Source of the DNA: an uncultured Collinsella sp.
GTDB lineage: Bacteria > Actinomycetota > Coriobacteriia > Coriobacteriales > Coriobacteriaceae
DNA: 64,000 nucleotides
Direction: 5' to 3'
NCBI GenBank assembly: GCA_900541185.1
Contig: UQIQ01000001.1
Span: 6,921-70,920, forward strand
The position numbers and the translations under genes were made by a program. This document shows positions 9,406-46,830 of the stretch, piece by piece (the first letter of the stretch is position 1; each line of letters begins with the position of its first letter). Below the pieces are notes generated by a model. That model did not search any database. It worked only from the letters and a program-made list of their open reading frames with translations, and was not told the origin of the DNA.

Positions 9406-9433
9406 GCTGCCCGCAACATCAAGTTGCTAGCAA

Positions 9434-9467
9434 AGGCCCGGATGCCCCACGGCACCCGGGCCTTTTT
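9434..9467 (+). terminator. Intrinsic terminator directly after rplX
   Basis: AGGCCCGG(A)TGCC-ccac-GGCA(C)CCGGGCCT followed by TTTTT. Confidence 0.8.
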
Positions 9468-9474
9468 CTATCCC

Positions 9475-9500
9475 TACTCATTGGGGATACTCATTGGGGA
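9475..9500 (+). repeat. Tandem 13-mer TACTCATTGGGGA x2
   Basis: Exact direct duplication at the left edge of the AT-rich region 9468-9748. Confidence 0.85.
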
Positions 9501-9748
9501 CAGACTTAAATGAGTACCCTAACTGGGTAAGCATAAATGAGCGGGTCGTGCTGTATAAATTGCTTGTGTGCGCGTTTATGCGCGTTAGATTGCGTTTAAT
9601 TACGCACCTATGCGTATATATGCGCCGTTTACGGGGCAATAATGACCGTTTAGCGGTGAGATACGCAAAAACACGCACAGACGCGCGTGTTTGTGCGAAT
9701 ATAGAGCTGTCAGAAATGCAAGACTTTCTATGACACAGGAGACACATA

Positions 9749-10828
9749 ATGGCAGATTCCAAGCAGGCTCCACTCGACGCCGCGGCAGCCGCCAAAGCAG
9801 CATTTGCTTCGGTCCAGGACAAGCCGTTCCCTAACGACATCTTTACGGCTCCCGAGCTCCGTTGGGCTGTGATCGGTTGCGGCGTTATTGCCAACCAGAT
9901 GGCTCAGTCCCTTGCCCTGGCCGGCCGCAAGCTTACGGGCGTTGCCAACCGCACGCTCACCAAGGCTCAGACTTTTGCCGACCAGTACGGCGTCGAGAAG
10001 GTCTATGACACGGTTGAGGATCTCTACGCCGATCCTGACATCGACGCCGTCTACATCACCACCCCGCACAACACCCATATCACCTATCTGCGCGCCGCCT
10101 TGGCGGCCGGCAAGCACGTTCTCTGCGAGAAGGCCATCACGCTCAACTCCGCCGAGCTCGATGAGGCCCGCGCCATTGCCGCCGAACACAACGTGGTCCT
10201 TATGGACGCTACCACGGTGCTCCACATGCCCTTGTATCAAGAGCTGCGCCGCCGCATGGATGCCGGCGAGTTTGGCCGCATGAACCTCGCTCAGCTCAAC
10301 TTTGGTAGCTACAAGGAGTACGGCGACCTGACCAACCGTTTCTACAATCGCAACCTCGCCGGCGGTGCCATGCTCGATATTGGCGTATACGCCCTGTCCG
10401 TCATGCGCCTGTTTATGGCGAGCCAGCCCGTCGAGGTCGTGTCTCTGGGTAACATCTGCGAGACCGGCGTGGACGTTGCAGGCGGCATCGTCTGCCGCAA
10501 TGCCGAGCAGCAGCTGGGCGTCGTGAGCCTTACGCTCCACTCCAAGCAGCCAAAGCGCTCGGTTATCAGCTTTGACAATTGCTATGTCGAGGTCAACGAG
10601 TATCCGCGCGCCGATCACGCGACGATCTTGTGGACCGCGGACGGTCATCGCGAGGAGGTCGCCGCGGGCACCGAGGCTTATGCCCTGTGCTACGAGATGG
10701 CTGACCTCGAGCAGGCCGTCGCCGGCGACGATTCCAAGCGTGAGCTTCTGGATTATGCTTCTGATGTGATGGAGCTCATGACCAAGCTCCGCGCCGATTG
10801 GGGAGTCGTCTACCCCGAGGAGGAGTAA
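9749..10828 (+). CDS. Gfo/Idh/MocA family NAD(P)-dependent oxidoreductase
   Basis: RWAVIGCGVIAN Rossmann N-terminus and the EKA(I) motif (HVLCEKAITL). CAGGAG RBS. Confidence 0.85.
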   Translation: MADSKQAPLDAAAAAKAAFASVQDKPFPNDIFTAPELRWAVIGCGVIANQMAQSLALAGRKLTGVANRTLTKAQTFADQYGVEKVYDTVEDLYADPDIDAVYITTPHNTHITYLRAALAAGKHVLCEKAITLNSAELDEARAIAAEHNVVLMDATTVLHMPLYQELRRRMDAGEFGRMNLAQLNFGSYKEYGDLTNRFYNRNLAGGAMLDIGVYALSVMRLFMASQPVEVVSLGNICETGVDVAGGIVCRNAEQQLGVVSLTLHSKQPKRSVISFDNCYVEVNEYPRADHATILWTADGHREEVAAGTEAYALCYEMADLEQAVAGDDSKRELLDYASDVMELMTKLRADWGVVYPEEE

Positions 10829-10831
10829 GCG

Positions 10832-11578
10832 ATGCTTGCGGAAGATAGGCTCAATACGATCGTGTCGATGGTGCAGCAGGCTGGCTCGGTAACGGTGCCC
10901 GAGCTTGCCGATGCCCTGGGCGTGACGGCCTCTACCATTCGACGCGACCTACAGACGCTCGACCGAGCGCACCGCATCGCCAAGGTGCACGGTGGCGCGA
11001 CAAGTCTTGAGCGCGCGCACGTGACGCGCGACCTAACGATCAGTGAGCGCAGTGATCTCCATAACGACGACAAGGAGCGTATTTGCGCCCGTGCCGCGGC
11101 CCTGGTGGAGCCCGAGAGCTTTGTGTACATCGATTCGGGTTCGACAACGCTCAGACTCATCGAGCATCTTCCGCATCTCGAATCGGTCACCTATGTGACT
11201 GATTCCGTGCTCCATGCTCAGCATCTCGCTGTGCGCGGCATGCGCACCGTGGTGCTGGGCGGCGAGCTTAAACCCGAGACCGAGGCGCTCGTTGGCCCCG
11301 ATGCTCTGGCAACCCTAGACCGCTACAACTTTAACTGCGGCTTTTGGGGTTCCAACGGCATTGCCGCCGAGCAGGGCTTTACGACACCCGATATCGAGGA
11401 AGCGCAGGTCAAGCGTATCTCGATGCGCCATACAGCCAAACGCTTCGTAATCTCGGACGCCAGTAAGTTTGGCATGGTGGCGCCCGTCAAGTTCGCGGAC
11501 TTCCGTGACGCAACGATTATTACCGCAGGCGATGTCCCCGCCAAGTACCGGGCAATGGACAACGTCATCACGGTCTAA
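10832..11578 (+). CDS. DeoR/GlpR family transcriptional regulator
   Basis: N-terminal HTH (VTVPELADALGVTASTIRRDLQTL) plus a DeoR C-terminal sensor domain. Confidence 0.85.
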   Translation: MLAEDRLNTIVSMVQQAGSVTVPELADALGVTASTIRRDLQTLDRAHRIAKVHGGATSLERAHVTRDLTISERSDLHNDDKERICARAAALVEPESFVYIDSGSTTLRLIEHLPHLESVTYVTDSVLHAQHLAVRGMRTVVLGGELKPETEALVGPDALATLDRYNFNCGFWGSNGIAAEQGFTTPDIEEAQVKRISMRHTAKRFVISDASKFGMVAPVKFADFRDATIITAGDVPAKYRAMDNVITV

Positions 11579-11694
11579 CAGCAGGGGACGGGCAAACGCC
11601 AAAACCACCGCGAAGGGGTAGGAACCTATGTGGTGGTTTTGACGTTTGTCCAGATAAAACCTGCCAAAATAAACCTGTCCCTTTTCGGCAGGTT

Positions 11695-12354
11695 TTAGGG
11701 CTCCCAGGGGCAGGGGGCTTCGATGTGGATGTGCTCGCCGGTTACGGGATGCGTAAAGGACACGCTGTGGGCGTGGAGCATCAGGCCGCAGGGGCGCGGC
11801 GTTCCGTACAGGTCGTCGCCAACCAGGGGGTGATGCTCGCTGGCCAGATGCACGCGAATCTGATGCTTGCGGCCGGTGAGCAGCTCGACATCAATATACG
11901 AGCGCGTGGGCAGGCCACGGCGGCTCTTAAGACGCTTGAGTACCTTGACGCGCGTCTGAGACGGCTTGCCGCTGGCGCCGACGCGCATCTTGCGGCTATC
12001 GTGGCGGTCGCGGGCGATGGGCTTGTCGATGAGCTTTTCGTTCCAGTCGATTTTGCCCTCGGCGAGCGCCAGATAGTGCTTTTCGAAAGCGTGGTCGATG
12101 ACCATCTGGTCAAAGGCGGGCTGCGTCTGCTTGTCGAGCGAGAACAGCACCACGCCGGTGGTGTCGCGGTCTAGGCGGTTGAGCGGCTGCATGTCGGTCG
12201 CGGCAAAGCCGTCGCCCATCGCCAGCAGCAGGTCGCTGGCGTAGTCGGTGAGCGTGCGCTCGCCGGTGCCGTCGCCGTGGACGATCATGCCAGCGGGCTT
12301 GTCGATGGCCATGAGCCAGGCGTCGCAGTAGAGGACTTGAGGTTCTTCGTTCAC
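11695..12354 (-). CDS. RluA family pseudouridine synthase
   Basis: GRKHQIRVHLA catalytic-region motif and LDRDTTGVV. GTG start 15 nt after the upstream U32 gene, with a GAAAGG RBS. Confidence 0.85.
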   Translation of the reverse strand: MNEEPQVLYCDAWLMAIDKPAGMIVHGDGTGERTLTDYASDLLLAMGDGFAATDMQPLNRLDRDTTGVVLFSLDKQTQPAFDQMVIDHAFEKHYLALAEGKIDWNEKLIDKPIARDRHDSRKMRVGASGKPSQTRVKVLKRLKSRRGLPTRSYIDVELLTGRKHQIRVHLASEHHPLVGDDLYGTPRPCGLMLHAHSVSFTHPVTGEHIHIEAPCPWEP

Positions 12355-12369: not shown

Positions 12370-14862
12370 TTAGCTGATTCCCACAAACATGCAGCCCGAG
12401 GTGGCGCCGCGCAGGCGGGCGGCGGGCTTGCGGCCCGCCTGCGCGGCTTCGACGGCACGACGGACGCGGGCGACGGCACGGCCCACCTCATCCGTCTCGA
12501 GCAGCGTTCCGTCAACCATGAGACGACGCACGCCGGCATCGAGCAGCTGAGGAACCTGCGGCGTGAGGTCGATGAGGTAGGCATCGTACAGGCGAGAGCG
12601 GCCGTGGATGTCGGTGCGGACGGGCATGACCTTTCCGTCGATATTCTTGAGCGAGAGCTTGCGGGCACGCAGACGGCAGTTGACACAATCGTGGATGCAG
12701 CCGTTGGCAACCTGCAGAATGCAATGCTCGCTTGTCATGACGTGCGGGCGGCCAAAGACGGTGATGCCCAGAGCCGCGGGCGCGGCGGCACCGAGCGAGA
12801 CAATCTCGTCGAGCGTGATTTCGGGCGAGAGCCAAAACGCACCGGCTCCGCGCTCGGCAAGCGCCTCCATGCAGGCCGTGTTGTGCACGGGCAGACAAGA
12901 GCGGACTTCTGCCGTGGCGCCAACCTGGGCGGCCAGGGCAAGCTCGGAGATGTTGCCAATAGCCACCGTGGCACCGGCAACAACCCACGGGTCGACGCGC
13001 TCGTGGTCGACGGCGCGGCAGACCTCGTCGAGTACGGGCACGATACCCTGCTCAAATGCATCGGCAGGGGAGAGTCCGACAGCCTCGAGCGCGTCGGTGG
13101 TCATATAGATGCGCGTTGCACCCTCCGCGCGGGCTGCCTCGGCGGCCTCGAGCGAGGTGACGGTGGCGCAGATCTGCGGCTCGTCGCGGTAGTGCTTGGG
13201 CATGGGGCGCGTACATTTGTCGAGCACCGGCAACTCGAGCGTTTTTGCGCGCTCCTCGTACGGTGCCAGAATGGCCTCTTCCAGCGCCTTACAAGCGGTG
13301 GCGCGCACCTTGTGCACGGCGGAAAAGCCCATACCGCAGCCGGCGTCGAGCGAAACGTCAAAGCTTGCGGCCTCGAAGGGCGAGGAGCCCATGCGGCCCA
13401 CATGCTCAACCAGATCGGATGCCTCGACGGCGCGGGTCTTGGCGGCCTCGACGGTGAAGCCCGTGGCGGTGGCGGTGAGCGCGGGGTTGTCACAGCAGGT
13501 GAGTGTGACAGTAAACGGCTCGCCCAGGCGCGCCACGACGGACACGTCAACAGCTCGGCGGCGCAGCACATCGCGCTTGAGCGCGGCGCCGGCGGCGTCG
13601 ATGGCGCGCTGACTGCGAATCACGCGGACGCGGCAGCCCTCGGGCATGCTGCGGGGCACGCGACATTCGATGATGTCGCCGGCGGCGGCATCATCGGCGG
13701 CAATGGTGGTCAGGAACTGGTCAAACTCGTTATCGTGGCGAAGCTCCAGCAGGTCGCCCTTGCCCACGGGCTCAAACAACTCAATGCGGGCGATGGCGGC
13801 GCGCCGACGGCGGTCGTCGGGCTTGAGGCCGCGCACATCGCGGTTGGCCAGACGGCTGCCCAGTACCGTGCCCACGATCTGGCCGCGGTTGTTGGAACGC
13901 TCATAGCTCATCATCTCGTCGCCCGAGGTGCCGTCCTGATAGGCGTGCGTAAAGTCGCGGTTGAAGCAGCGCTTGAGCTGGCGCTGGCGGGCTGCATCCT
14001 CATCCTTGGAGGTCGAAACATCGGCCAGCATGTCATCAATCTGATGACGGTACACGTCGACGATGGAATACACGTAATCGGGGGCCTTCATGCGGCCCTC
14101 GAGCTTGAGCGATGCGGCGCCGGCGTCATACAGACGGCGAACAAGCAGCGACGTGTTGGTGTCGCGCGGGCACAGCGCGCGCTCGCGACCGGCAGGGGAG
14201 AGCGAGCGGCCGTTCTCGTCGATCAGCTCGTAAGGCAGGCGACAGGGCTGAGCGCACATGCCGCGGTTGGCCGAGCGGCCCGCCATGGCAAAGCTCGAGA
14301 GCAGGCACAGGCCCGAGTAACAAAAGCAGATGGCGCCGTGGCTAAAGACCTCGAGGTCCACATCGGGCGCGGCGTCGTGGATGGCGGCGATCTCGTCGAT
14401 GGAGAGCTCACGCGAGAGAGTCACGCGGTCGGCGCCCTGCTCACGACACCAAAGGGTTCCGCGGTCGTCATGGATGTTCGCCTGGGTCGAGATGTGTGTC
14501 TCGATGCCGGGCATCGTGCGCTTGACCTCAAAGAACAGGCCCCAGTCCTGGATAATGAAGGCATCGGCGCCCAGCGTTGAGCAGCGGTGGATGAGTTGCA
14601 GCGCATCGCCCATCTCGGACTGCTTGATGACGATGTTGACCGTGACGTAGACGCGCGACCCGGCTAGATGCGCGGCGCGGCAGGCTTGCTCAAAGGCCTC
14701 GTCGGTAAAGTTGGTGGCCTTGCGGCGGGCGTTGAAGCTGCCCATGCCGCAGTAGATGGCGTCTGCCCCGGCAGCGAGCGCGGCGGCAAAGGGCTCCGGG
14801 CCTCCGGCGGGCGCCAAAAGCTCGGGTCTGCGGTTGGTGGTTCGACTGGCGGTTGCGGTCAT
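12370..14862 (-). CDS. Peptidase U32 family protein, long form (830 aa); candidate RNA/quinone hydroxylation-type enzyme
   Basis: PELLAPAGG...GADAIYCG N-terminus. Conserved Cys cluster CFCYSGLCLLSS...RSANRGMCAQPCR. Additional C-terminal Cys motif. Confidence 0.8.
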   Translation of the reverse strand: MTATASRTTNRRPELLAPAGGPEPFAAALAAGADAIYCGMGSFNARRKATNFTDEAFEQACRAAHLAGSRVYVTVNIVIKQSEMGDALQLIHRCSTLGADAFIIQDWGLFFEVKRTMPGIETHISTQANIHDDRGTLWCREQGADRVTLSRELSIDEIAAIHDAAPDVDLEVFSHGAICFCYSGLCLLSSFAMAGRSANRGMCAQPCRLPYELIDENGRSLSPAGRERALCPRDTNTSLLVRRLYDAGAASLKLEGRMKAPDYVYSIVDVYRHQIDDMLADVSTSKDEDAARQRQLKRCFNRDFTHAYQDGTSGDEMMSYERSNNRGQIVGTVLGSRLANRDVRGLKPDDRRRRAAIARIELFEPVGKGDLLELRHDNEFDQFLTTIAADDAAAGDIIECRVPRSMPEGCRVRVIRSQRAIDAAGAALKRDVLRRRAVDVSVVARLGEPFTVTLTCCDNPALTATATGFTVEAAKTRAVEASDLVEHVGRMGSSPFEAASFDVSLDAGCGMGFSAVHKVRATACKALEEAILAPYEERAKTLELPVLDKCTRPMPKHYRDEPQICATVTSLEAAEAARAEGATRIYMTTDALEAVGLSPADAFEQGIVPVLDEVCRAVDHERVDPWVVAGATVAIGNISELALAAQVGATAEVRSCLPVHNTACMEALAERGAGAFWLSPEITLDEIVSLGAAAPAALGITVFGRPHVMTSEHCILQVANGCIHDCVNCRLRARKLSLKNIDGKVMPVRTDIHGRSRLYDAYLIDLTPQVPQLLDAGVRRLMVDGTLLETDEVGRAVARVRRAVEAAQAGRKPAARLRGATSGCMFVGIS

Positions 14863-15161
14863 ATCCTGCCTTTCAAAATGCTCAAATACTCAATAGTATA
14901 GTGGCGCCGTCGCGATGGACGATGCCCGCAGCCTAAGCAGGACAAAGTCTTCAGCAGCTTGGGCTGGCTTTCCCACATGAGAACCGTTCAGCGGTTCGGG
15001 GAAACCGTTGGGCGATAAAATATTCTCGCAACGTGATAATAATCTTGCATCGCGCGGAAACCTTGAGTACTATCCCAATCAAGCGCGGTGTTCAGACCGA
15101 ACTGTGCCTCCCGGTGCGAACGCCGCGCTCACGCTCTCTATCTGATCGTAAGGAGAAAAAC

Positions 15162-15539
15162 ATGAGCAAGACCGTCGTGTCTTCCGATAACGCACCCGCA
15201 GCCATCGGACCGTATTCCCCCGGTATCCAGACCGGCAACATGGTGTTCCTGTCCGGCCAGCTGGGCATCGACCCCACAACTGGCAAGATGCCCGAGGGCG
15301 TCGAGGCCCAGGCCAAGCAGTCCCTTGCTAACGTCGAGGCCCTGCTGACTGCCGCCGGCGCTACGTTTGCCGATGTCGTCAAGACCACGGTCTACCTGGC
15401 CGACATTGCCGACTTCGCTGCCGTGAACGAGATCTACGCCTCCAAGTTCGAGGCCCCGTTCCCCGCGCGCAGCGCTTTCCAGGTTGCCGCCCTTCCGGCT
15501 GGCGGTCTGGTCGAGATCGAGGTCGTCGCCGCTCTCTAA
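15162..15539 (+). CDS. ridA: RidA family reactive-intermediate (enamine/imine) deaminase
   Basis: APAAIGPYSPGI...VFLSGQLGIDP...ARSAFQVAALP signature. AAGGAG RBS. The upstream ORF extension was rejected. Confidence 0.9.
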   Translation: MSKTVVSSDNAPAAIGPYSPGIQTGNMVFLSGQLGIDPTTGKMPEGVEAQAKQSLANVEALLTAAGATFADVVKTTVYLADIADFAAVNEIYASKFEAPFPARSAFQVAALPAGGLVEIEVVAAL

Positions 15540-15569
15540 GGCGTTGGCAACAACTAAACATGACATGCA

Positions 15570-15607
15570 AAAAGACCCTGCAGCGCGTGTGAACTGCAGG
15601 GTCTTTT
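15570..15607. terminator. Bidirectional intrinsic terminator between ridA and the YheO-like gene
   Basis: AAAAGACCCTGCAG-N10-CTGCAGGGTCTTTT. Confidence 0.8.
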
Positions 15608-15651
15608 GTTAAGTGACGGATCGCTTGTGGAGCCGCGCTCCATTTTGCTCG

Positions 15652-16359
15652 TTAGCCCTCCTTGCGAACTTTTTGCAGGTAGCGGTAGACGCTGGGCTCC
15701 GAGATGCCCAGCGCGGTGGCGGCGCAGGCCACGGCGCCCTTGAGCATGAACACCCCGTTGCCGTTGAGGTGGCGAATGACGTCCACGCGGTCGCTCTGAC
15801 CAAGCGACGCTACATCCAGCCCGCGCGCGCTCAGCAACTCGGCAATGCTGCGGTCGATGAGCTCCTGTGTGGACTCCGAAAGGCTTTCGACCTCGATAGG
15901 GGCGGGCTCCGTGCGCGTCGGCGCCGCGTCGAAGCACGCCATGAGCTGCTGCGCCATGGCGTTGATGGAGCGTACGGTCGAGAGGTCGGTGTTGACGCAG
16001 AGCATACCGACGATCTCGTCATTCTCGCGGATAAAGTACGTCGCCGACTCCAACGTCTTGCCGCCGGCACCGCGCCCCTCGTAGCCCGTAATAAACGGCA
16101 GGTCGCGATACTTGGGGTCGTGCATGATCTTGAGCGCCAGATCGGTGGCGGGGCCGCCGACCTTGCGGCCGCTCACGATGCCGTTGCGAATATCGACGAT
16201 GGCGTGGTCGGGATCCGAGAAATCGTGCAGCACGATTTCGCTGTTTTTGCCGAGTATCTGCTCCAGAAAATCGACCATCGGCAAAAAGCGGCGTACGGTC
16301 TCGTTCACGGGCAACTCCTTTGGGTGAAAACAGAAATGTTCATAACAATTTTTTCTCAT
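15652..16359 (-). CDS. YheO-like PAS-domain / HTH transcriptional regulator (paralogue 1)
   Basis: EIVLHDFSDPDHAIVDIRNGIVSGRKVG matches the YheO-like PAS region. C-terminal HTH (ATALGISEPSVYRYLQK). Start at 16359 was chosen by alignment with the paralogue at 36575-37228. Confidence 0.7.
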   Translation of the reverse strand: MRKNCYEHFCFHPKELPVNETVRRFLPMVDFLEQILGKNSEIVLHDFSDPDHAIVDIRNGIVSGRKVGGPATDLALKIMHDPKYRDLPFITGYEGRGAGGKTLESATYFIRENDEIVGMLCVNTDLSTVRSINAMAQQLMACFDAAPTRTEPAPIEVESLSESTQELIDRSIAELLSARGLDVASLGQSDRVDVIRHLNGNGVFMLKGAVACAATALGISEPSVYRYLQKVRKEG

Positions 16360-16660
16360 GGTAACACGCTGCCCACCATCTCGTATATCCGCAGGTACAT
16401 TGCGTAATGCAGACGAACGGTAGGAATTTAGCGGTAAACGGTTGACCAAAAGAAAAGTTAGATGTTATTTTGACCAGACACTTTCCTGACCTGCGGAAAT
16501 GCGTTATTTCAGCTGAAGAATGGTCTGATAACAAAAAATTATTATTGAGAATGAGAATCATCTTTAATACGATATGCAATGAAGGCACAACCTCAACCCC
16601 GCACTGCGTCACAATAGAGCGTTAGATGCGAAAACAACTACTTCGAGGATTGGTGGTCAA

Positions 16661-18055: not shown

Positions 18056-18250
18056 CCAATTCGGTGCTATTCGTCGGCGGACGCATCGCCTCGTCCGCCG
18101 ACGCCATGCGGCGCCAAGCCGCACTTCAAAGGGCTTGTCCCTTTGGTGAAGCGTTGACGGGAGAGGGCCCGTTTCCGGTGTAGGCCGGCGCTTCGCACTC
18201 CGCCATGTCAGAGGTGTCAAACCCCGCCTCTGATGTTGAAGGGAGCATCC

Positions 18251-37228: not shown

Positions 37229-37366
37229 GGGTACCTTCCTAAAAATTAGTTTGGGCACACTTTGCCATAAACCACACATGACCGCAAACAAATCCATCAA
37301 CAAGGCAATTCATGACCGTTCGGCGGCGAAAAAGTACCGATTACGGCAACAAACAATTCGTTAGGT

Positions 37367-37419
37367 ATGCCAATCAAAAAGTGTGATAGAACATTACTAA
37401 CAAACTTTTTGTTTGGCAT
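37367..37419. promoter_or_regulatory. Inverted repeat (16-bp arms, 15/16 match, 21-bp spacer) between YheO-like gene 2 and dpaL
   Basis: ATGCCAATCAAAAAGT...ACTTTTTGTTTGGCAT lies in the divergent promoter region. Confidence 0.45.
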
Positions 37420-37505
37420 CCACATAAAAGTTCAGTCGCATGAATGGGAATGGGCTGAAACGCGTATGCGGGGGCCGGCAAGAGAGGACTTAAGGAGTTC
37501 ACCGT

Positions 37506-38720: not shown

Positions 38721-38794
38721 TCGTTGGGGCGGAGTAAATAGGTATCGCTCCGCCACCTCACAGGTAGATTCCTTCGTATGAAAGGTTATGAACA

Positions 38795-40180
38795 ATGGCT
38801 AAGGAACTCGATTTCGACGCAATCAAGGCTGCTGCTGAGTCTCATCGTGCTGATATGACTCGTTTCCTGCGCGCTATGATCTCCCATCCCTCTGAGTCCT
38901 GCGAGGAGGGTGAGGTTGTCGCCTGCATCAAGGCCGAGATGGAGAGCCTTGGCTATGACGAGGTCAAGGTCGACGGCCTGGGCAACGTCATGGGCTTTAT
39001 GGGCGAGGGCGACAAGATCATCGCCATCGACTCCCACATCGACACCGTCGGCATCGGCAACATCGAGAACTGGGATGCCGATCCCTATGAGGGCTACGAG
39101 ACCGACGAGATCATCTACGGCCGCGGCGGCTCTGACCAGGAGGGCGGCATGGCTTCTGCTACCTACGCTGCCAAGATGATGAAGGACATGGGCCTCATCC
39201 CCGAGGGCTACAAGATCATGGTTGTCGGCACCGTCCAGGAAGAGGACTGCGACGGCATGTGCTGGCAGTACATCTACAACAAGGATGGCATTAAGCCCGA
39301 GTTCGTCATTTCCACCGAACCCACCGACGGCGGCATCTATCGCGGTCACCGCGGCCGCATGGAGATCCGCGTCGACGTTCACGGTACCTCCTGCCACGGC
39401 TCCGCTCCCGACCGCGGCGACAACGCCATCTACAAGATGGCCGACATCATCGCCGACGTCCGCGCCCTCAACAACAACGGCTGCGACGAGTCGACCGACA
39501 TCAAGGGTCTCGTCAAGATGCTCGACCCCAAGTACAATCCCGAGCACTTCGAGGATGCCCGCTTCCTGGGCCGCGGCACCTGCACCGTCAGCCAGATCTT
39601 CTACACCAGCCCCAGCCGCTGCGCCGTGGCCGACTCCTGCGCCATCTCCATCGACCGTCGTATGACCGCCGGTGAGACCTGGGAGTCCTGCCTGGACGAG
39701 ATCCGCAACCTGCCGGCAGCCAAGAAGTACGGTGACGACGTGAAGGTCTCCATGTACATGTACGACCGTCCGTCCTGGACCGGCGAGGTCTACGAGACCG
39801 AGGCTTACTTCCCCACGTGGATCAACAAGGAGACCGCTCCGCACGTCAAGGCCCTCGTCGACGCCCACAAGGCCATGTTTGGTGACGAGCGCATCGGCTG
39901 CGAGCCCAGCATGGACAAGCGCACCGGTCGCCCGCTGTGCGACAAGTGGACCTTCTCCACGAACTGCGTCTCCATCCAGGGCCGTTACGGCATCCCCTGC
40001 GTGGGCTTTGGCCCGGGTGCCGAGTCTCAGGCTCACGCCCCCAACGAGGTCACCTACAAGGATGACCTGGTCACCGCTGCCGCCATGTACGTGGCTGCCC
40101 TGAACCTCTACGATCCGAGCCAGGCCGATGGCGACGCCACCGTGTTCCGCGCCGGTCTGACCAACAACAAGATCGATTAG
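38795..40180 (+). CDS. ygeY: YgeY-family M20 peptidase/deacylase
   Basis: M20 motifs ([11 protein letters not shown]; [13 protein letters not shown]). 461 aa. Lies between the ygeX and ygeW homologues, as in the E. coli cluster. Confidence 0.8.
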
Positions 40181-40381
40181 TCCCATTCCTCGATTTTGTT
40201 GAGCCGGGGGCCGCTCGTGTCCCCGGCGCTCCCTGTTGACTTGGGGCCCGCGGTCGTTATCTCCCATGCTTCCTCAACGGTGGCGGGTCCTCGTCATGGT
40301 GCTCTGCATGTTCTAGCCACACGCGCATGCCGGAGCACATCTACTCATTGCGATCGTTTCATCTTTAGAAAGGACATTTCC

Positions 40382-41584
40382 ATGGACGCTAAGTTTACCG
40401 AGCTCGTCGAGCAGCTGAACGGCCTCGATTTTAAGGGCATGTACGGCAGCGACTTCCTGCACACCTGGGACAAGACCACCGATGAGCTCAAGGCTCTCTA
40501 CATCGTCGCCGACGCCCTGCGCGAGCTGCGTGAGAACAACGTTTCGTCCAAGATCTTCGACTCGGGCCTGGCCGTCTCCCTGTTCCGCGACAACTCCACC
40601 CGTACGCGTTTCTCTTTCTCTAAGGCCGCCAACCTGCTCGGCCTTGAGCTGCAGGACCTGGACGAGAAGAAGTCCCAGATCGCCCACGGCGAGACCGTCC
40701 GCGAGACCGCTACCATGATCTCCTTCATGGCCGACGTCATCGGCATCCGCGATGACATGTACATCGGCAAGGGCGATGCCTACATGGCCGAGGTCTCCGA
40801 GTCCGTGCAGCAGGCCTACGAGGATGGCGTTCTGGATCACCGTCCCACGCTCATCTCTCTGCAGTCCGATTCCGACCACCCCACGCAGTCCTCTGCCGAC
40901 ATGCTCTACCTCATCAACGAGTTTGGCGGCCTCGAGAACCTTAAGGGCAAGAAGGTTGCCGTCACCTGGGCCTATTCGCCCTCTTACGGCAAGCCGTTGT
41001 CCTGCCCGCAGTCGCTGATCAGCCTGCTGCCCCGCTTTGGCATGGACGTCACCCTGGCTCACCCCGAGGGCTACGACCTCATGCCCGAGGTCGTCGAGCG
41101 CGCCAAGAGCTATGCCGCCGAGTCCGGCACCACCTTTAAGCAGGTCAACACCATGGCCGAGGCCTTCGAGGGCGCCGACATCGTGATCCCCAAGAGCTGG
41201 GCTCCGTTTGCCGCCATGGAGAAGCGCACCAACCTGTACGCCGAGGGCGACGACGCCGGCATCGCAGCGCTCGAGAAGGAGCTGCTCGCCCAGAACGCCA
41301 CCCATCAGGACTGGTGCTCCACGACCGAGCTCATGGAGAAGACCGCCAACGGCCAGGACACTATCTTTATGCACCCGCTGCCCGCCGACATCTCCGGTGT
41401 CTCCTGCGAGCACGGCGAGGTTAACGCCGACGTCTTCGACATGCACCGCGTGGGCATGTACAAGGAGGCCAGCTACAAGCCGTACGCCATCGCTGCCATG
41501 ATGTTCCTGCAGAAGGTTGCCGATCCCGCCGCTACCCTCAAGGCCCTCGACGAGCGTAACACCGCCCGTTGGCTCCAGGCCTAA
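40382..41584 (+). CDS. ygeW: YgeW-like (knotted) carbamoyltransferase
   Basis: SLFRDNSTRTRFSF carbamoyl-phosphate-binding STRTR motif and HPLPA. 400 aa. The upstream ORF extension was rejected. Confidence 0.85.
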   Translation: MDAKFTELVEQLNGLDFKGMYGSDFLHTWDKTTDELKALYIVADALRELRENNVSSKIFDSGLAVSLFRDNSTRTRFSFSKAANLLGLELQDLDEKKSQIAHGETVRETATMISFMADVIGIRDDMYIGKGDAYMAEVSESVQQAYEDGVLDHRPTLISLQSDSDHPTQSSADMLYLINEFGGLENLKGKKVAVTWAYSPSYGKPLSCPQSLISLLPRFGMDVTLAHPEGYDLMPEVVERAKSYAAESGTTFKQVNTMAEAFEGADIVIPKSWAPFAAMEKRTNLYAEGDDAGIAALEKELLAQNATHQDWCSTTELMEKTANGQDTIFMHPLPADISGVSCEHGEVNADVFDMHRVGMYKEASYKPYAIAAMMFLQKVADPAATLKALDERNTARWLQA

Positions 41585-41607
41585 AGCCGGGTTGAGGTAA
41601 GCCATGT

Positions 41608-41648
41608 AAAGGGGGCGCTCTGCCAACCGGCGGGGTGCCCCCTTTTTG
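41608..41648 (+). terminator. Intrinsic terminator after the ygeW-like gene
   Basis: AAAGGGGGC...GCCCCC followed by TTTTTG. Confidence 0.7.
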
Positions 41649-41734
41649 CATCGCGGGCGTGCGGGATAAGCGCTTTCGATGTGGATGCCCGCGGCGCGCG
41701 TTATGGGTACGATGGTTTCAGGGGAGGTATCACC

Positions 41735-42349
41735 ATGAGACTTGGATGCGTCATTATGGCTTCGGGCGAGGGCAAGCGGTTTGGCTCTAACAAGATGCTT
41801 GCCGATATCTATGGCGAGCCGCTGATTGCCCGGACCATCGATTCGGTTCCCCGGGGCTTTGACGTCGTGGTTTCGACGCGTTGGCCCGAGGTCGCCCAGA
41901 TTTGCGAGGACAAGCATTGCCCGTGCGTGCTGCACGATGGCGGGCTGCGCAGCGAAAGCGTCCGTGCGGGCCTTTCATGGGGAGTCGAACGCAACTGGAA
42001 AGGTTGCCTCTTTTTGCCGGGCGACCAGCCGCTCGTGAGTTCGGATTCTTTTGATGCCATGGTTCGCGCATTTGACGAGCGTGGCCGCAAACATCCGGTG
42101 CGCTTGGCGTGCAGCGGTGAGCCTTCGAGCCCGGTGCTCTTTCCGGCGGAACTGTTCGATGCACTTATGTGTCTTGAGGGCAAGGACGGCGGGGGCTCGA
42201 TTCTCGAAGGTCGCGTCGACGTTGCGCTGGTCGAGGCGCGTGCCTACGAGCTGTGGGACGTCGATACCGTCAAGGGACAGCGACGCATAACGGAGCATAT
42301 TGCCGCCTGCTCGTATTTTGATCGCGTGGCCAACTGTATTAATCAATAA
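41735..42349 (+). CDS. mocA: MobA/MocA-like molybdenum cofactor nucleotidyltransferase (YgfJ-like)
   Basis: VIMASGEGKRFGSNKML N-terminal NTP-transferase motif and LPGDQP. GGGGAGG RBS. Confidence 0.75.
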   Translation: MRLGCVIMASGEGKRFGSNKMLADIYGEPLIARTIDSVPRGFDVVVSTRWPEVAQICEDKHCPCVLHDGGLRSESVRAGLSWGVERNWKGCLFLPGDQPLVSSDSFDAMVRAFDERGRKHPVRLACSGEPSSPVLFPAELFDALMCLEGKDGGGSILEGRVDVALVEARAYELWDVDTVKGQRRITEHIAACSYFDRVANCINQ

Positions 42350-42357
42350 GGAGCAAC

Positions 42358-43725
42358 ATGATCATCATCAAAAACGGCGCGCTCGTGACGCCACAGGGGC
42401 TTCGCCGCGCCGATCTTGCCATGGATGACGATAAGATCGTGCGGATTGCCGCGGCAATCGAGCCTGGCGAGGGCGATACCGTCCAGGACGCCACCGACTG
42501 TTGGGTGTTCCCCGGCTTTATCGACGGCCACACGCACATGCAGTGCTGGACCGGCATGGACTGGACGGCCGATAGCTTTGAGACCGGCACGCGCGCGGCT
42601 GCCTGCGGCGGCACGACGACCATCGTGGACTACGCGACGGCCGATCGCGGCGTGACCATGCCCGATGCCCTTGCCGAGTGGCATCGCCGCGCCGACGGCA
42701 CCTGCACGGCCAACTACGCCTTTCATATGGCACTCGCCGAGTGGAACGAGCACAACCGCGCCGATCTTTCGGCCATGCGCGAGGCGGGCGTGTCGTCGTT
42801 TAAGACCTATTTTGCCTACGACCATCTGCGCTTGAACGATGCCGAGACGCTCGAGGTGCTGGAGGAGCTCAAGCGCCTGGGCGGTATCCTGTGCGTGCAT
42901 TGCGAGAACGGCACGTTGGTCAACGCGCTGCAGAAGCGCGTGTTTGAGCAGGGTATCCACGGGCCCGAGGGCCATGCGCTCAGCCGTCCGGACGTGTGTG
43001 AGGCCGAGGCCGTGAGCCGCCTGCTGTATCTGGCTCACTTGGCCGGGGACGCTCCGGTCAACGTGGTGCACCTTTCGACCAGGCTGGGGCTCGAGGCCAT
43101 TCGCGCTGCCAAAGCGCGCGGGCAGAAGAACATCTATGTCGAGACCTGCCCTCAGTATCTGATGCTCGACGATACTTGCTACTTGGAGCAGGGCGAGGAC
43201 GGCTTTGCGGGTGCCAAGTACGTGATGAGCCCGCCGCTGCGCCATGCCGGCGACCGTGCAGCCCTGCGCGAGGCGCTTGTGGCCGGCGAGATCGATACTA
43301 TTGCGACCGATCATTGCAGCTTTAACCTGCATGGGCAAAAGGACCGCGGGCGCGACGATTTTCGCGCGATTCCCAACGGTGGGCCCGGCGTGGAGCATCG
43401 TCCCGTCGCGATTGCCACGAGCTTTGAGGGACAGCTGGGACCCGAGGATCTGTGCCGCTTGATGAGCGAGAACCCGGCGCGCGTCTTTGGCATGTACCCG
43501 CGCAAGGGCTGTCTTGCCGAGGGCGCCGATGCCGACGTGTGCGTGTGGGATCCGTGCGCGCGTTGGACGATCAGCGCCGCGACACAGCATCAGGCCGTGG
43601 ACTACACGCCGCTCGAGGGCTTTGAGGCACATGGCCGCGCCAAGGCCGTGTTTGTGAACGGCGTGCTGGTGGCGCGCGATGGCGAGCCCACCGGAGCCCA
43701 GCCCGGTCGCTACGTGCCTCGCTAG
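42358..43725 (+). CDS. hyuA: D-hydantoinase/dihydropyrimidinase family amidohydrolase (HyuA/YgeZ-like)
   Basis: PGFIDGHTHM HxH motif, SFKTYFAY carboxylated-Lys region, ATDHCSF. AAGGAG RBS. Confidence 0.85.
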   Translation: MIIIKNGALVTPQGLRRADLAMDDDKIVRIAAAIEPGEGDTVQDATDCWVFPGFIDGHTHMQCWTGMDWTADSFETGTRAAACGGTTTIVDYATADRGVTMPDALAEWHRRADGTCTANYAFHMALAEWNEHNRADLSAMREAGVSSFKTYFAYDHLRLNDAETLEVLEELKRLGGILCVHCENGTLVNALQKRVFEQGIHGPEGHALSRPDVCEAEAVSRLLYLAHLAGDAPVNVVHLSTRLGLEAIRAAKARGQKNIYVETCPQYLMLDDTCYLEQGEDGFAGAKYVMSPPLRHAGDRAALREALVAGEIDTIATDHCSFNLHGQKDRGRDDFRAIPNGGPGVEHRPVAIATSFEGQLGPEDLCRLMSENPARVFGMYPRKGCLAEGADADVCVWDPCARWTISAATQHQAVDYTPLEGFEAHGRAKAVFVNGVLVARDGEPTGAQPGRYVPR

Positions 43726-43751
43726 CAGCAAAGATGCCGTGTCCCCTCCGC

Positions 43752-43819
43752 AGTTGCGGTGAAATACGGACTGTTTGCGGCCGTCATACGGCCAAACAGT
43801 CCGTATTTCACCGCAACTG
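43752..43819. repeat. 67-bp palindromic element, copy 1 (26-bp arms)
   Basis: AGTTGCGGTGAAATACGGACTGTTTG-loop-CAAACAGTCCGTATTTCACCGCAACT. Lies between the convergent hyuA and yqeC genes, with no flanking U-tract. Confidence 0.9.
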
Positions 43820-43834
43820 ACGAGATGGGGCCGG

Positions 43835-44569
43835 CTACTTGAGGCTGGTGGCGATGAGGGGGCGGTTGAGGGCTGCCTCGAAGCGATCTGCCATCGTGGG
43901 GTCGCTGAGCGTGTCGACTTGGTTGAGCATGATGCGGGCATTGTTGAGGTTCAGCATCCGCAGCTCGGCATTGAGCACCTGGGCGACGCGCTCTGGGGTG
44001 GCAGTGTCGGTGAGCTCGCAGCCGCAACGCTCGCAAAAGAGCTCGGGGCGGTGGACAACCTCGGCGACGGGTTTGCCCAGTCCCGAGGCGCCGACGACCC
44101 AGACAACGTTTGCCGTGGCGGCGGGAATTACCGGCTCCCAGGCGGCATGCGCCTTGAGCGGGAGTCGCTTGCTGCCATCTGCCTCGGCCAACACATAGTC
44201 ATAGCGCTGCGCCAGCTCGTTGAGCGGCTCGGCGGGGGCGGAGAGCTTGCCTGTCTCCGGGTCCAAAACACCTGCCTGGCAGATGCTTCCGCGGGCAAGT
44301 CCCGCGCATGCCTCGCAGGTGCAGCCGGGAACATGCAGGGTCCCCGGCTTCCAAGGCGCGGCGTCCAGGCGACGGCTCGACCCGTCCCATGGCACGCCGG
44401 CGACGGGAAACATGTGCGTGGTGGTGCAGAGGAGCACCCTGCCGCCGGCGCGCATGAGCTCAAGGCCGAGCGTCTTCAGCAATGTCGACTTGCCGCCACT
44501 GCCGATAATTGCGGTAATGCCCGGCTCGATCTTGAGCGCGGAGGCAAGGTTTCCGCTCGTCGTTTCCAT
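43835..44569 (-). CDS. yqeC: YqeC-family selenium-dependent hydroxylase accessory protein
   Basis: P-loop ITAIIGSGGKSTLL. 244 aa. Context with yqeB/xdhC/mocA homologues. Confidence 0.75.
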   Translation of the reverse strand: METTSGNLASALKIEPGITAIIGSGGKSTLLKTLGLELMRAGGRVLLCTTTHMFPVAGVPWDGSSRRLDAAPWKPGTLHVPGCTCEACAGLARGSICQAGVLDPETGKLSAPAEPLNELAQRYDYVLAEADGSKRLPLKAHAAWEPVIPAATANVVWVVGASGLGKPVAEVVHRPELFCERCGCELTDTATPERVAQVLNAELRMLNLNNARIMLNQVDTLSDPTMADRFEAALNRPLIATSLK

Positions 44570-44671
44570 CTGTTCACCGCCGTATAATACTGTGATAATA
44601 AATAATCATCAGAGTAGCGGTCGAACCGCTTTTGCTCTGCTCAAACCGTAGCACAGGGAGGTGCCCCGGGA

Positions 44672-45466
44672 ATGCTCGTTTATGTTCGCGGCGCTGGCGA
44701 TATCGCCACGGGCGTCGCCGCTCGCTTGGTTCGCGCCGGCGTGTCGGTCGTTATGGCCGATATCGCGGTTCCCACGTGCATCCGCCGCACAATCAGTTTT
44801 TGCGAGGCCATTCGCCTGGGCGAGGTCGAGGTCGAAGGCATTCGCGCTCGCTTTGCACTGACGCCGGCTGAGGCGCTCGAGATTACCCAAGCGGGGGATG
44901 TTGCCGTCGTGGTGGACCCTCAGGCCAAGATGCTTGATGAGCTTAAACCCGCGGCTGTGGTCGACGCGATTTTGGCCAAGCGCAACCTGAGCACCACGCG
45001 CGACATGGCGCCTGCCGTCATCGCCGTGGGGCCGGGCTTTACCGCGCCGGTTGACTGTGACGCCGTGGTCGAGACCATGCGCGGGCATTTTCTCGGCCGT
45101 GTCATTACCCAAGGTTCGCCGCAGCCCAACACGGGTGTGCCGGGCATTATCGCTGGCTATGGCAAGGAGCGCGTTATCCACAGCCCCGCCGACGGCGTGT
45201 TTCGGTCTGACCGCGCAATCGGCGACATCGTGAGCGCCGGCGACGTGATTGGCTACGCGGGCGATACGCCCATGTGCACGCAGATCGATGGCTGTATGCG
45301 CGGGCTTTTGGCGAACGGCGTGCAGGTGACTGAGGGCTTTAAATGTGCCGATGTCGATCCGCGTGGCGATGCCAGCTATATCAACTACATTTCGGACAAG
45401 GCGACGTCGGTCGGAGGCGGTGTGCTCGAGGCACTCGCTATGCTCACCGATGTCTTTAGAGGATAG
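44672..45466 (+). CDS. yqeB: YqeB-family protein (selenium-dependent molybdenum hydroxylase system)
   Basis: MLVYVRGAGDIATGVAARLVRAGVSVVMADIAVPTCIRR Rossmann-like N-terminus typical of the family (assignment from memory); context. Confidence 0.65.
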   Translation: MLVYVRGAGDIATGVAARLVRAGVSVVMADIAVPTCIRRTISFCEAIRLGEVEVEGIRARFALTPAEALEITQAGDVAVVVDPQAKMLDELKPAAVVDAILAKRNLSTTRDMAPAVIAVGPGFTAPVDCDAVVETMRGHFLGRVITQGSPQPNTGVPGIIAGYGKERVIHSPADGVFRSDRAIGDIVSAGDVIGYAGDTPMCTQIDGCMRGLLANGVQVTEGFKCADVDPRGDASYINYISDKATSVGGGVLEALAMLTDVFRG

Positions 45467-45475
45467 AAGGCGGCA

Positions 45476-46519
45476 ATGGAAAAGCTCGATGTGGTGAATG
45501 CTGCGCTTGGCGCTCTGCGTGCTGGCGAGACGTGCGAGCTCGTGGTCGTGGCCGGTACGGCGGGGTCGTCACCGCGCGGTGTGGGCGCATGGATGACTGT
45601 CTTTGCCGACGGCAGCCAGGCGGGCACCATCGGCGGCGGCAAGATTGAGCTCTTTGCGCTGGACGAGGCGCGCGAGCTGCTGAGCGCGGGACAGTCGCGT
45701 CTGGTCCGCTACACCATGGGCGGCGAGAACTCCGATACCGGCATGATCTGCGGCGGAGCCATCTGCCTGTGCTACCTGCATCTGGATGCGACTCAGGCAT
45801 CGTTGTTCCAAGAAATTGCCGACGTCTTGGCCTATCGGCGCATCGGCGACTTCGTCATCGACTATGAGCCGTTTATCGCGAGCGCACTCGAGGGCGATGT
45901 GGCCGAGTACCATGGCGAGGCATCGCGCCACACCATTGCGGGCTGCCCCGGGCTTTCGCTGGTGGAGGAGGGGAGTAAGGTCACCTACACCAACGCCGCC
46001 TCCGAGATTCCCGCGGCTCACATCGAGACACTCTGCCCCGAGGGCCTGACCTATATCTTTGGCTGCGGACATGTGGGCGCCGCGACGGCGCGGGTGCTCA
46101 CGGGGGCGGGCTTTGCCGTCGTGGTTTGCGACGACCGCCCCGGCACGCTGACCCCCGAATGGGTGCCCGGTGTCTACGACCGTCGTCTGGTCGACTACAA
46201 GAACCTGAGCAAACAGTGCCCCATCGGCCCGCGCGACCTGGTGGTCGTCGCCACGGCGGGCCACAAGTCCGATATCGACGTGGTGATTCAGGCCATGCGC
46301 GCCAAGCCTGCCTACCTGGGCTGCCTGGGATCGCGCCGCAAGACGGCCTTTGTGCGTGCCCGCCTGGAGCAGGAGGGCTTTACGCAGGACCAGATCGGCG
46401 AGCTGCATCTGCCGATCGGCGTTGCCATCGAGGCCGAGGATCCCGAGGAGATCGCCATCTCCATCGCCGCCGAGATGATCCACCTGCGCCGCACCAAACT
46501 CGTCCCCCGCAAGCGCTAA
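45476..46519 (+). CDS. XdhC/CoxI family molybdenum hydroxylase maturation factor
   Basis: N-terminal XdhC_CoxI-like region plus a Rossmann domain (IFGCGHVGAATARVLTGAGFAVVVCDDRP). Confidence 0.8.
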   Translation: MEKLDVVNAALGALRAGETCELVVVAGTAGSSPRGVGAWMTVFADGSQAGTIGGGKIELFALDEARELLSAGQSRLVRYTMGGENSDTGMICGGAICLCYLHLDATQASLFQEIADVLAYRRIGDFVIDYEPFIASALEGDVAEYHGEASRHTIAGCPGLSLVEEGSKVTYTNAASEIPAAHIETLCPEGLTYIFGCGHVGAATARVLTGAGFAVVVCDDRPGTLTPEWVPGVYDRRLVDYKNLSKQCPIGPRDLVVVATAGHKSDIDVVIQAMRAKPAYLGCLGSRRKTAFVRARLEQEGFTQDQIGELHLPIGVAIEAEDPEEIAISIAAEMIHLRRTKLVPRKR

Positions 46520-46536
46520 TCGCATCCCCATATATG

Positions 46537-46610
46537 AGTTGCGGTGAAATACGGACTGTTTAAGCCTGTTAAGCCGTCAAACAGTCCCTATTTCACCGCA
46601 ACTGCTTTTT
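46537..46610 (+). terminator. 67-bp palindromic element, copy 2, followed by a T-run (terminator before rplE)
   Basis: Same arms as 43752-43819 (one mismatch) with a different loop, followed by GCTTTTT. Confidence 0.8.
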
Positions 46611-46664
46611 GGGATCCATTTGTGCGGGGGAGTTGTGGAGTTGTGCAGGCAGACGAGGTTTTTC

Positions 46665-46693
46665 TGGAAATACGCACCCAATGCGCGTATAGT
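46665..46693 (+). promoter_or_regulatory. Candidate promoter for rplE and downstream genes
   Basis: TGGAAA-17 nt-TATAGT, about 137 nt upstream of the rplE ATG and directly after a terminator. Confidence 0.4.
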
Positions 46694-46830
46694 ACCGATT
46701 GTTTTGTCGGCTCCTGCTGCGTCGAGTCCAAACCGCGAAATGCCATGAGTGGCGCGGATGCAGCCAGGAGGCACGAGGACAACCCATTGTGGCCACGCCC
46801 CGTGCTTAAAACCCCAAGAAGGAGTGAACA

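Follow-up and report, generated by a model that had tools for sequence, protein, structure and literature searches.

An rplX/rplE operon boundary in Coriobacteriales that probably gained genes stepwise, with uric-acid genes in the Collinsella aerofaciens group

The window analysed here is a stretch of 64,000 nt (G+C 60.6%) from an uncultured Collinsella sp. (contig UQIQ01000001.1), in which the stop codon of rplX and the start codon of rplE, two ribosomal protein (r-protein) genes, are separated by 37,425 bp (9406-46830), so that the rplN-rplX-rplE contiguity of the canonical spc operon is absent. The S10-spc-alpha cluster is the textbook case of a gene order that resists change. From a comparison of Coriobacteriales lineages (Collinsella, Coriobacterium, Olsenella, Parolsenella and Atopobium) we conclude, with a probability of about 0.8, that the rplX/rplE junction has long been an operon boundary in this order, at which genes accreted stepwise, and is not the interior of one spc operon. 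At slightly better than even odds, we also propose that a promoter and a leader RNA occurring across the order represent an independently evolved r-protein feedback element, which made the boundary insulated and then a hot spot of accretion hosting uric-acid genes. All the coordinates are positions in the window, and L-numbers denote the loci of relatives that were compared.

According to this proposal, the genes from rplC to rplX and those from rplE to rplQ would be separate units, the second with a promoter of its own and a leader reaching as far as the ribosome-binding site, a layout usual for translational feedback by an r-protein. The boundary would predate the inserted genes, because L095, L146 and the Atopobium locus L219, all gene-free at this position, share the promoter-like site and the leader. 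From a gene-free gap of 0.3-0.6 kb, the junction would have expanded in the C. aerofaciens group to 37.4 kb by modules: an old core (dehydrogenase, DeoR, pseudouridine synthase, U32), RidA and a uric-acid module between the U32 gene and rplE, and an island, with low G+C at third codon positions (GC3) in one gene, placed inside the uric-acid module. Since the boundary was already insulated, DNA inserted there would not have been polar on essential ribosomal genes, and since the ribosomal genes on either side are near-identical and would act as anchors for interstrain recombination, the site may have become a hot spot of accretion.

The rplX/rplE gap in the window and in relatives

Upstream of the gap the window carries rplC to rpsQ, followed by rplN and rplX, and downstream of it the genes from rplE through rplQ are uninterrupted and in canonical order, as they are in the gene tables of L081-L090. 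Pfam identities and coordinates confirm the split of 37.4 kb described in a first-pass annotation of this DNA. That annotation had counted about 30 genes in both orientations; the orientations stand (17 genes on the plus strand and nine on the minus strand), but the number does not, the gap containing about 26 non-ribosomal open reading frames (ORFs) with coding-like GC3, with 86% of its length coding. An ORF at 47449-48762 on the minus strand was discarded as a spurious product of the greedy gene pick.

The strong terminator that had been noted after rplX was recovered as a hairpin whose 75-nt fold has a free energy of -35 kcal/mol (z = -6.2), with none of 200 shuffled sequences as stable. 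A simple terminator scanner overlooked it on account of one internal stem mismatch, and it was folding together with an inverted-repeat search that recovered it. It is kept in all of the 80 Collinsella loci described below, in which homology extends to about 9479 or further, and an analogous hairpin followed by a U-run lies 3′ of rplX in a further Collinsella (L098), in L095, in an Olsenella uli-like locus (L131), in Parolsenella (L195) and in Atopobium (L219); with the window, six of the lineages checked in which rplX and rplE do not overlap thus have a terminator after rplX. As regards the product of rplX, residues ~71-99 of the window L24 form a C-terminal CxxC...CxxC motif with a weak Pfam Zn_Ribbon_TF match. 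This motif (CPECG...CKKCG) is found in Collinsella, Coriobacterium and L095/L146, and its cysteines are absent from the L24 of Olsenella and Parolsenella (L131, L195 and L219 compared); it looks like a zinc ribbon, and the variants resemble the C+ and C- forms of uL24.

Relatives were collected by context look-ups with progressively more distant L24 proteins and by a metagenome scan. The L24 scan, with one genome per species, gave 80 loci, nearly all from Collinsella, with an L24 99-100% identical to that of the window, and in none of them was rplE found within 10 kb 3′ of rplX. The left-hand genes of the window are present in 53 of these loci and an alternative island in 18, the remaining nine being too short to classify. 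Homology of the window to other Collinsella species ends at 9479-9516 and restarts near 9638, leaving 9480-9638 variable; precisely, the spacer opens with an exact tandem 13-mer, TACTCATTGGGGA, present twice (9475-9500), at which the homology ends. The 18 species representatives with the alternative arrangement lose homology at 9479, directly after the rplX terminator, where an island of at least 9.9 kb begins that is ~97% identical among them (e.g. L002 10381-20303). This island carries an IS3-type HTH_21 remnant, a LevR-like PRD/EIIA regulator, the IIC and IID components of a mannose-family phosphotransferase system (PTS) for sugar, a DUF2961 protein and a ROK kinase. The HTH_21 remnant fits the transposon-assisted insertion that has been proposed for ribosomal gene clusters (PMC8046335).

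Outside this set the gap is graded. In an Acidimicrobiales metagenome-assembled genome (MAG) taken as outgroup (L221), rplX and rplE overlap canonically by 4 nt. The gap measures 281 bp in Atopobium (L219), 495 bp in L095 and ~580 bp in L146, with no gene in any of the three and no ORF in the last two, and 1.0-1.2 kb in Parolsenella (L195) and the Olsenella uli-like locus (L131), where a single small conserved ORF (~100 aa, beginning MGVMAE(D/E), GC3 0.75-0.84) stands between rplX and the rplE leader. It reaches 1.66 kb with one transporter gene in Coriobacterium glomerans PW2 (L096), 4.6-5.3 kb with a dehydrogenase, with or without a DeoR regulator, and U32 in C. intestinalis/stercoris-like loci (L127, L214, L199), and 4.7 and 9.0 kb in the Collinsella loci L098 and L097, respectively, which hold a pseudouridine synthase, U32 and PTS EIIA, and in one case also a 1392-aa NACHT-type gene. 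The latter, a DUF4062/NACHT-type gene (STAND NTPase) at 14768-18946 on the minus strand of L097, is absent from the otherwise identical L098. In L094, in which rplE was not reached, rplX is followed by a major facilitator superfamily transporter, the pseudouridine synthase, U32, RidA, YheO and a xanthine-dehydrogenase-type enzyme. The window, with 37.4 kb and about 26 genes, stands at the end of the series.

With 0, 1, 3-4 or ~26 genes at the junction, and with sub-blocks that vary by strain, the single insertion of 37.4 kb supposed in the annotation does not hold. The annotation had also named sharing by all the relatives in the order as what would make the split a lineage trait and not a local event; a long spacer or a split is found in both Coriobacteriaceae and Atopobiaceae, and the arrangement is by that measure a lineage trait. 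The same series bears on a different origin, in which an inversion or a translocation had its breakpoint between rplX and rplE and the 37 kb are the DNA between re-approached breakpoints. Such an origin would account for C. phocaeensis, C. vaginalis and Collinsella sp. AK_207A, in which the DNA after rplX enters housekeeping genes and rplE lies outside the fetched 10-kb flank, and for one Olsenella genome without rplE within the fetched 4 kb; the neighbours in these genomes are housekeeping genes (groES-groEL, rnr-smpB). We consider it improbable, since the series is nested and constant in orientation, as successive insertions into one spacer give, since the edges keep the same terminator, promoter and leader while the core (dehydrogenase, DeoR, pseudouridine synthase, U32) persists, and since head-to-tail, same-strand units in every case examined are not expected of rearrangements.

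The promoter region and the leader RNA of rplE

The palindrome noted before rplE was confirmed as a hairpin with a fold of -45 kcal/mol (z = -8.8), limited to the C. aerofaciens group and followed by CTGCTTTTT. It probably terminates or insulates the transcript of the uric-acid cluster ahead of the rplE promoter, and it would keep uric-acid-induced transcription out of the ribosomal unit. Downstream of it, the promoter-like site of the annotation, sigma-70-like in type, was matched by our scanner, which found one site where 1.1 were expected by chance. Four positions of the -10 hexamer (T46688, A46689, T46690 and T46693) are invariant in an alignment of 11 sequences that includes relatives without inserted genes, and a -35 motif TCTgG is conserved at 90% or more in the same alignment; in Atopobium, the corresponding position reads, by eye, TGGCAT-17-TAGACT. 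Transcription of the rplE-to-rplQ unit in the window would start at about 46700. The promoter reading stood; the leader measures ~130 nt instead of the ~137 nt first given. The promoter had been thought to be new as a consequence of the insertion; this was not borne out, the same site and leader being present in the gene-free loci L095, L146 and L219. With a conserved site and leader of its own before rplE, any feedback target would lie near the 5′ end of the transcript, as had been anticipated.

The promoter-like site and the leader precede rplE in every relative aligned, either split or unsplit, with a leader length of about 90-250 nt in general. In the first helix, P1, CUCCUG (46711-46716 onward) pairs with CAGGAG (46765-46770) around a variable apex with GCC(A/G). 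The second, P2, abuts P1 (coaxially) and pairs GCACG-A-GG (46771-46778) with CCCCGUGC (46798-46805), its 3′ strand being CC-CGUGC; its interior ranges from 4 to ~170 nt among relatives. P2 is followed by an invariant UUAAAACCCC (46806-46815) and then by the Shine-Dalgarno sequence AAGGAG (46819-46824). The leaders of L192, L199 and L214 (286-295 nt) have an additional structured insert of ~110-170 nt in the P2 interior, with the P2 pairs and the invariant tail unaltered, and that of Atopobium is minimal, with a fully compensated P1 (CCCUUUG/CAAAGGG).

RNAalifold, run on a MAFFT alignment, recovered P2 independently, with three compensated pairs and broken pairs in one of 153 cells; MAFFT misaligned P1 in the short leaders, hence only P2 was obtained in this way, and a covariance model with P1 and P2 was built, to which the leaders were realigned. 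Sequence-by-sequence folds gave an identical two-helix architecture in 18 lineages. The model matches 77 of 77 rplE upstream regions with 70-138 bits and has no other match in the window. In the model-fitted alignment 96.4% of the cells are paired and eight of the 16 pairs show compensatory changes; the observed values were reached by none of 500 shuffles, and slid-register controls pair only 36-52% of the cells. A pattern derived from the leader retrieved 120 metagenome stretches, with rplE 3′ of the motif wherever the downstream sequence sufficed (~110 of the 120). By its position, in a 5′ untranslated region (UTR) and always before rplE, and by its covariation-supported structure, the element thus qualifies as a candidate ribosomal leader (r-leader).

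The leader matched no Rfam 15 family, either at gathering thresholds or at E <= 10, the latter for all of 46400-47000, a library that may not include a model of the E. coli S8 site. Informally and by eye, no resemblance was noted to the E. coli S8 site, a helix whose internal loop imitates helix 21 of 16S rRNA and which overlaps the start of rplE, and none of its core features (AAG.../...GAUAC) was seen in P2. A second candidate, in which the 3′ part of the leader (CCCCGUGCUUAAAACCCCAGAAGGAG) would mimic loop C of 5S rRNA (CCCCAUGCCGAACUCAGAAGUGA in E. coli), was rejected, because the segment that matches forms a helix strand in the leader but a hairpin loop in 5S rRNA, because the GUGAAC tail is confined to C. 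aerofaciens, and because no 5S model matched at E <= 10. We consider that the genes from rplE to rplQ are probably under translational feedback by an r-protein binding P2 and the leader next to the Shine-Dalgarno sequence; candidate ligands would be S8, by positional analogy with E. coli, and L5, as the product of the first gene.

In E. coli, S8 exerts translational feedback at the start of rplE, within a transcript that begins further upstream (PMC3616713), and this RNA is reported to be narrowly distributed, in Gammaproteobacteria. The Coriobacteriales locus is similar in its gene order from rplE on, in a regulatory RNA element at or just before rplE and in translationally linked genes downstream; it differs in that the E. 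coli genes rplN-rplX-rplE are contiguous and on one transcript with the S8 site internal, whereas here a putative terminator follows rplX, and rplE has a promoter-like site and a 5′ leader of its own. By the E. coli precedent the operon could be functionally unsplit, with read-through from the upstream promoter and an element before rplE that acts as an internal processing or translational site only, and intrinsic terminators can in fact leak. Even so, read-through is very improbable in our opinion: strong terminators are predicted at both ends of the block, nine of its 26 genes are encoded on the other strand, among them the pair adjoining the left module, the cluster genes are inducible by uric acid, and the positions of the -10 hexamer are invariant across relatives. 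The terminator after rplX and the conserved promoter-like site, taken together, argue against a single transcript from upstream of rplN.

A number of points weigh against an old, insulated boundary that accreted genes. No obvious terminator is present in the first 96 nt 3′ of rplX in C. glomerans, and the lineages named above in which rplE lay outside the fetched flank may have separated the two units by rearrangement and not by insertion. The sequence in which genes accreted is taken from a small number of loci, with no species tree to guide it. For the age of the boundary only a limit can be given, because Eggerthellales lie outside the sample: none occurred in the top 120 matches of three homology searches, and the families sampled are Coriobacteriaceae and Atopobiaceae. 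The transcript ends at 9467 and 46610, the start near 46700 and the binding of a protein to the leader are all read from sequence. As to the RNA, the alignment behind the pair counts was fitted to the covariance model, which favours structure, and single-sequence folds of the leader do not exceed shuffles in stability (z = -0.8 to +0.3).

Composition, turnover and genes of the block

The annotation had judged the composition of the block similar to that of its flanks, and had seen neither integrase, transposase or tRNA nor flanking repeats; both observations were corroborated by a composition profile and by domain, tRNA and k-mer searches. The block and the flanking r-protein genes have a mean GC3 of 0.778 and 0.779, respectively, with a single outlier in the block at 27717-29627 (0.61), while GC falls to 0.52-0.57 at 27-31 kb. 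A tRNA scan found no tRNA gene in the block, Pfam and NCBIfam found no integrase, transposase, relaxase, phage or other recombinase domain among its ORFs, and the two junctions have no common k-mer of 9 nt or longer. None of the marks of a mobile island that were looked for (a recombinase; a tRNA or direct repeats; deviant composition) was thus present, and the description of the block as old and domesticated, not a fresh mobile element, is borne out by native composition and by the lack of mobile-element signs.

On the right-hand side, the exact L5 protein occurs in 79,027 blocks of a contig index, and the ten places shown all have YqeC, YqeB, the XdhC-family gene and rplE. The same gene order is found on these ten contigs, eight of which are 1.5-2.4 Mb long, with an extra permease in three of the ten. 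Among 74 informative metagenome loci, 37 have the right junction and 11 more have it with the extra permease.

A single large mobile element (an integrative and conjugative element, a prophage or a composite transposon), recently inserted between rplX and rplE, might be suspected from a large block on both strands with accessory metabolism, from the lower GC and GC3 at 27-31 kb and from the IS3-like remnant that the alternative arrangement has at this junction. We regard it as highly improbable, given the searches just described and the equal GC3, given that the left part is common to 53 species representatives and the right part to dozens of loci, and given that the gap of other species holds subsets of the block. 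The chance of an assembly artefact, with two contigs misjoined at 9.4 kb and 46.8 kb, is practically negligible, as the two junctions are found again in numerous independent assemblies (isolates, MAGs and long contigs), the right one on contigs of 1.5-2.4 Mb, and as in L222 the interior is the same from U32 through the surface protein.

Within the C. aerofaciens group, the dehydrogenase-DeoR segment (9611-11638) has 87-91% identity in most species representatives, compared with 94-99% in its flanks, and a few genomes are 97-99% identical across the entire region (L003, L006, L008 and others were compared); this divergence suggests allelic replacement through recombination inside the block. The contig L150 has an additional insert of ~1.5 kb at 35424/35463. 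On these comparisons the block is a mosaic within the group, with sub-blocks gained and lost between strains, and the 37-kb content is, as far as the compared loci indicate, specific to the C. aerofaciens group.

The dehydrogenase and DeoR genes adjoin rplX also in C. phocaeensis (L091) and in the C. intestinalis/stercoris-like loci, and by this distribution they are an old module. The pseudouridine synthase and U32 genes, an RNA-modification pair oriented opposite to the ribosomal genes, are, of all that the gap contains, the core shared most widely within Collinsella (L094, L097, L098, L127, L199, L214 and L185). A look-up with the ferredoxin gene, aimed at variants of the middle island, gave no arrangement other than that of the window. 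In this island, the C-terminus of a secreted repeat protein is read as a sortase-type anchor, and an S-adenosylmethionine (SAM) riboswitch match, together with frame-specific GC3, ruled out 34819-36327 (minus strand) as one gene. On the same strand, the riboswitch and the small ORF are followed by the repeat protein and the 423-aa protein, none of these being an obvious methionine or SAM gene.

The ribosomal super-cluster has a second opening at 1-3617 of the window, where rpsJ does not adjoin rplC, which is preceded by genes for PTS EIIC, cation efflux and a histidine phosphatase and then by a gap of 450 bp. Efflux and phosphatase genes are found at this opening in C. phocaeensis (L091) and a single short-chain dehydrogenase gene in L097; in C. 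glomerans (L096), rpsJ and rplC are 392 bp apart.

Table 1. Coordinates of the features in the window (family assignments and functional elements as predicted)
Feature	Position	Strand	Details
rplN	8718-9086	+	Pfam L14, 7e-55
rplX	9100-9405	+	Pfam L24/KOW, 1e-26; with rplN, end of upstream ribosomal transcription unit
Putative intrinsic terminator after rplX	9432-9467	+	arms 9432-9446 / 9451-9465 (15 nt, G+C-rich); T-run 9463-9467
Variable spacer / putative recombination breakpoint	9475-9748		homology comparison with other Collinsella
Gfo/Idh/MocA-family sugar dehydrogenase	9749-10828	+	Pfam; NCBIfam IolG-like, below cut-off
DeoR-family regulator	10832-11578	+	Pfam
RluA-type pseudouridine synthase	11695-12354	-	Pfam
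U32-family protein	12370-14862	-	Pfam; best NCBIfam matches TrhP/UbiU, below cut-off
RidA	15033-15539	+	Pfam
YheO-like PAS/HTH regulator	15652-16449	-	Pfam
Xanthine/uracil permease	16661-18055		Pfam
SsnA	18233-19606		NCBIfam equivalog above cut-off, 633 bits
YgfK	19633-22755		NCBIfam equivalog above cut-off, 1289 bits
4Fe-4S ferredoxin	22767-23246		Pfam
Selenium-dependent xanthine dehydrogenase	23259-26036		NCBIfam Se_dep_XDH above cut-off, 1128 bits
Middle island	26100-36570		~10 kb; most genes without family match
ORF of middle island, no assigned family	26524-27522	-	
ATPase_2/DUF234 protein	27717-29627	+	GC3 0.61
KapD-like DEDD exonuclease	30486-31220	+	
423-aa ORF, no assigned family	31262-32533	-	
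Secreted repeat protein	32680-34494	-	C-terminal LAATG motif, hydrophobic stretch, basic residues
Small ORF, no family match	~34819-35240	-	downstream of SAM riboswitch
SAM riboswitch (SAM-I)	35253-35343	-	Rfam 45.1 bits, gathering score 44.4; P4 nearly absent
Pro/Ala-rich protein	35462-36547	-	hydrophobic segment near C-terminus
YheO-like regulator (second)	36575-37303	-	Pfam
YgeX diaminopropionate ammonia-lyase	37506-38720		
YgeY	38795-40180		
YgeW carbamoyltransferase	40196-41584		
MobA-like nucleotidyltransferase	41681-42349		
D-hydantoinase	42358-43725		
YqeC	43835-44569	-	
YqeB	44672-45466		
XdhC-family maturation factor	45476-46519		passes only TIGR02964
Long hairpin	46527-46613	+	arms 46527-46561 / 46579-46613 (35 nt); T-run 46606-46610
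Promoter-like site	46665-46693	+	-35 TGGAAA 46665-46670, 17-nt spacer, -10 TATAGT 46688-46693; scanner
Structured rplE leader RNA (candidate)	46697-46830	+	~130 nt; P1, P2, tail, Shine-Dalgarno
rplE	46831-47388	+	Pfam L5
rpsN	47468-47653	+	first gene after rplE
rplQ	56213-56680	+	last gene of rplE-to-rplQ unit (46831-56680)

Uric-acid genes, known systems and significance

The cluster for selenium-dependent xanthine dehydrogenase and anaerobic uric-acid use lies in the block in two halves (15652-26036 and 36575-46519), with RidA adjoining the first. Its marker genes were recognised by NCBIfam equivalog models above curated cut-offs, which in the second half applies to seven of nine genes. The cluster is induced by uric acid in C. 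aerofaciens ATCC 25986, and mutants of C. sporogenes and E. coli support a role in uric-acid consumption (bioRxiv 10.1101/2022.07.24.501321); its genes are under a regulation separate from that of the ribosomal genes. In common with the known anaerobic uric-acid and purine clusters (ygeV-ygfK/xdh of E. coli; those of C. sporogenes and C. aerofaciens, Liu et al.), it has SsnA, YgfK, the selenium-dependent xanthine dehydrogenase, YgeX, YgeY, YgeW, a hydantoinase, YqeB, YqeC, an XdhC-family factor and a permease. Unlike them, it is halved by a 10-kb unrelated island, has YheO-type regulators, is housed within a ribosomal gene cluster, and is accompanied by no carbamate kinase that we could see in the block. 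Three metagenome contigs (L150, L157 and L175) are without ygeX-ygeY-ygeW and the hydantoinase (window 37291-41688 and 42366-43830), and retain the regulator, the MobA-like gene, yqeC, yqeB and the XdhC-family gene beside rplE; these loss variants agree with reports that strains vary in their use of uric acid.

Other interruptions of ribosomal gene clusters are on record. In Mycobacterium tuberculosis, non-ribosomal genes part rpsQ from rplN (Rv0710-Rv0714), hence an actinobacterial super-cluster is also interrupted there; that case concerns another junction, which is an operon border in E. coli, and few genes only, and we know of no dedicated leader at it. Insertions of few genes at junctions of the ribosomal super-cluster, with the order lost in some descendants, were described by Brandis (PMC8046335), who proposed transposon-assisted recombination. 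The window resembles those cases in having genes inserted at a super-cluster junction; they lie between operons (rpoBC/str, str/S10, rplL/rsmC) and consist of few genes, whereas the junction of the window is inside what is the spc operon of others and holds ~26 genes, still turning over between species. Eckert and Weinberg (2020, PMC7247131) listed 20 r-leader candidates, none of them for rplE or spc, and in Coriobacteria only an L31 leader. The rplE leader is like these in its location in the 5′ UTR of an r-protein operon, in its covariation, in its restriction to one lineage and in ending beside the Shine-Dalgarno sequence; unlike them, it is absent from that list and from Rfam 15. Neither the split nor its graded growth nor the leader was described in the literature that we searched, though the arrangement occurs in many public genomes. 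By type, the locus is a ribosomal gene cluster that has been interrupted and that carries a candidate r-leader specific to the lineage.

A whole order would have opened the S10-spc-alpha cluster at a fixed point, where the terminator, the promoter and the dedicated leader would make the two halves independent, hence the opening would be tolerated. The lineages compared may offer a natural series for the splitting of an operon and for the conversion of an insulated intergenic site into an insertion hot spot, and the leader is a candidate new ribosomal leader RNA in a phylum with few known. The locus also gives a practical context for the uric-acid genes of a bacterium very common in the human gut; these genes stand between ribosomal genes, with near-identical anchors and a strain-variable content. 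If the proposed role of the leader, to which we give little more than an even chance, is correct, a hot spot within the most conserved gene cluster of bacteria would carry medically relevant genes of uric-acid degradation.

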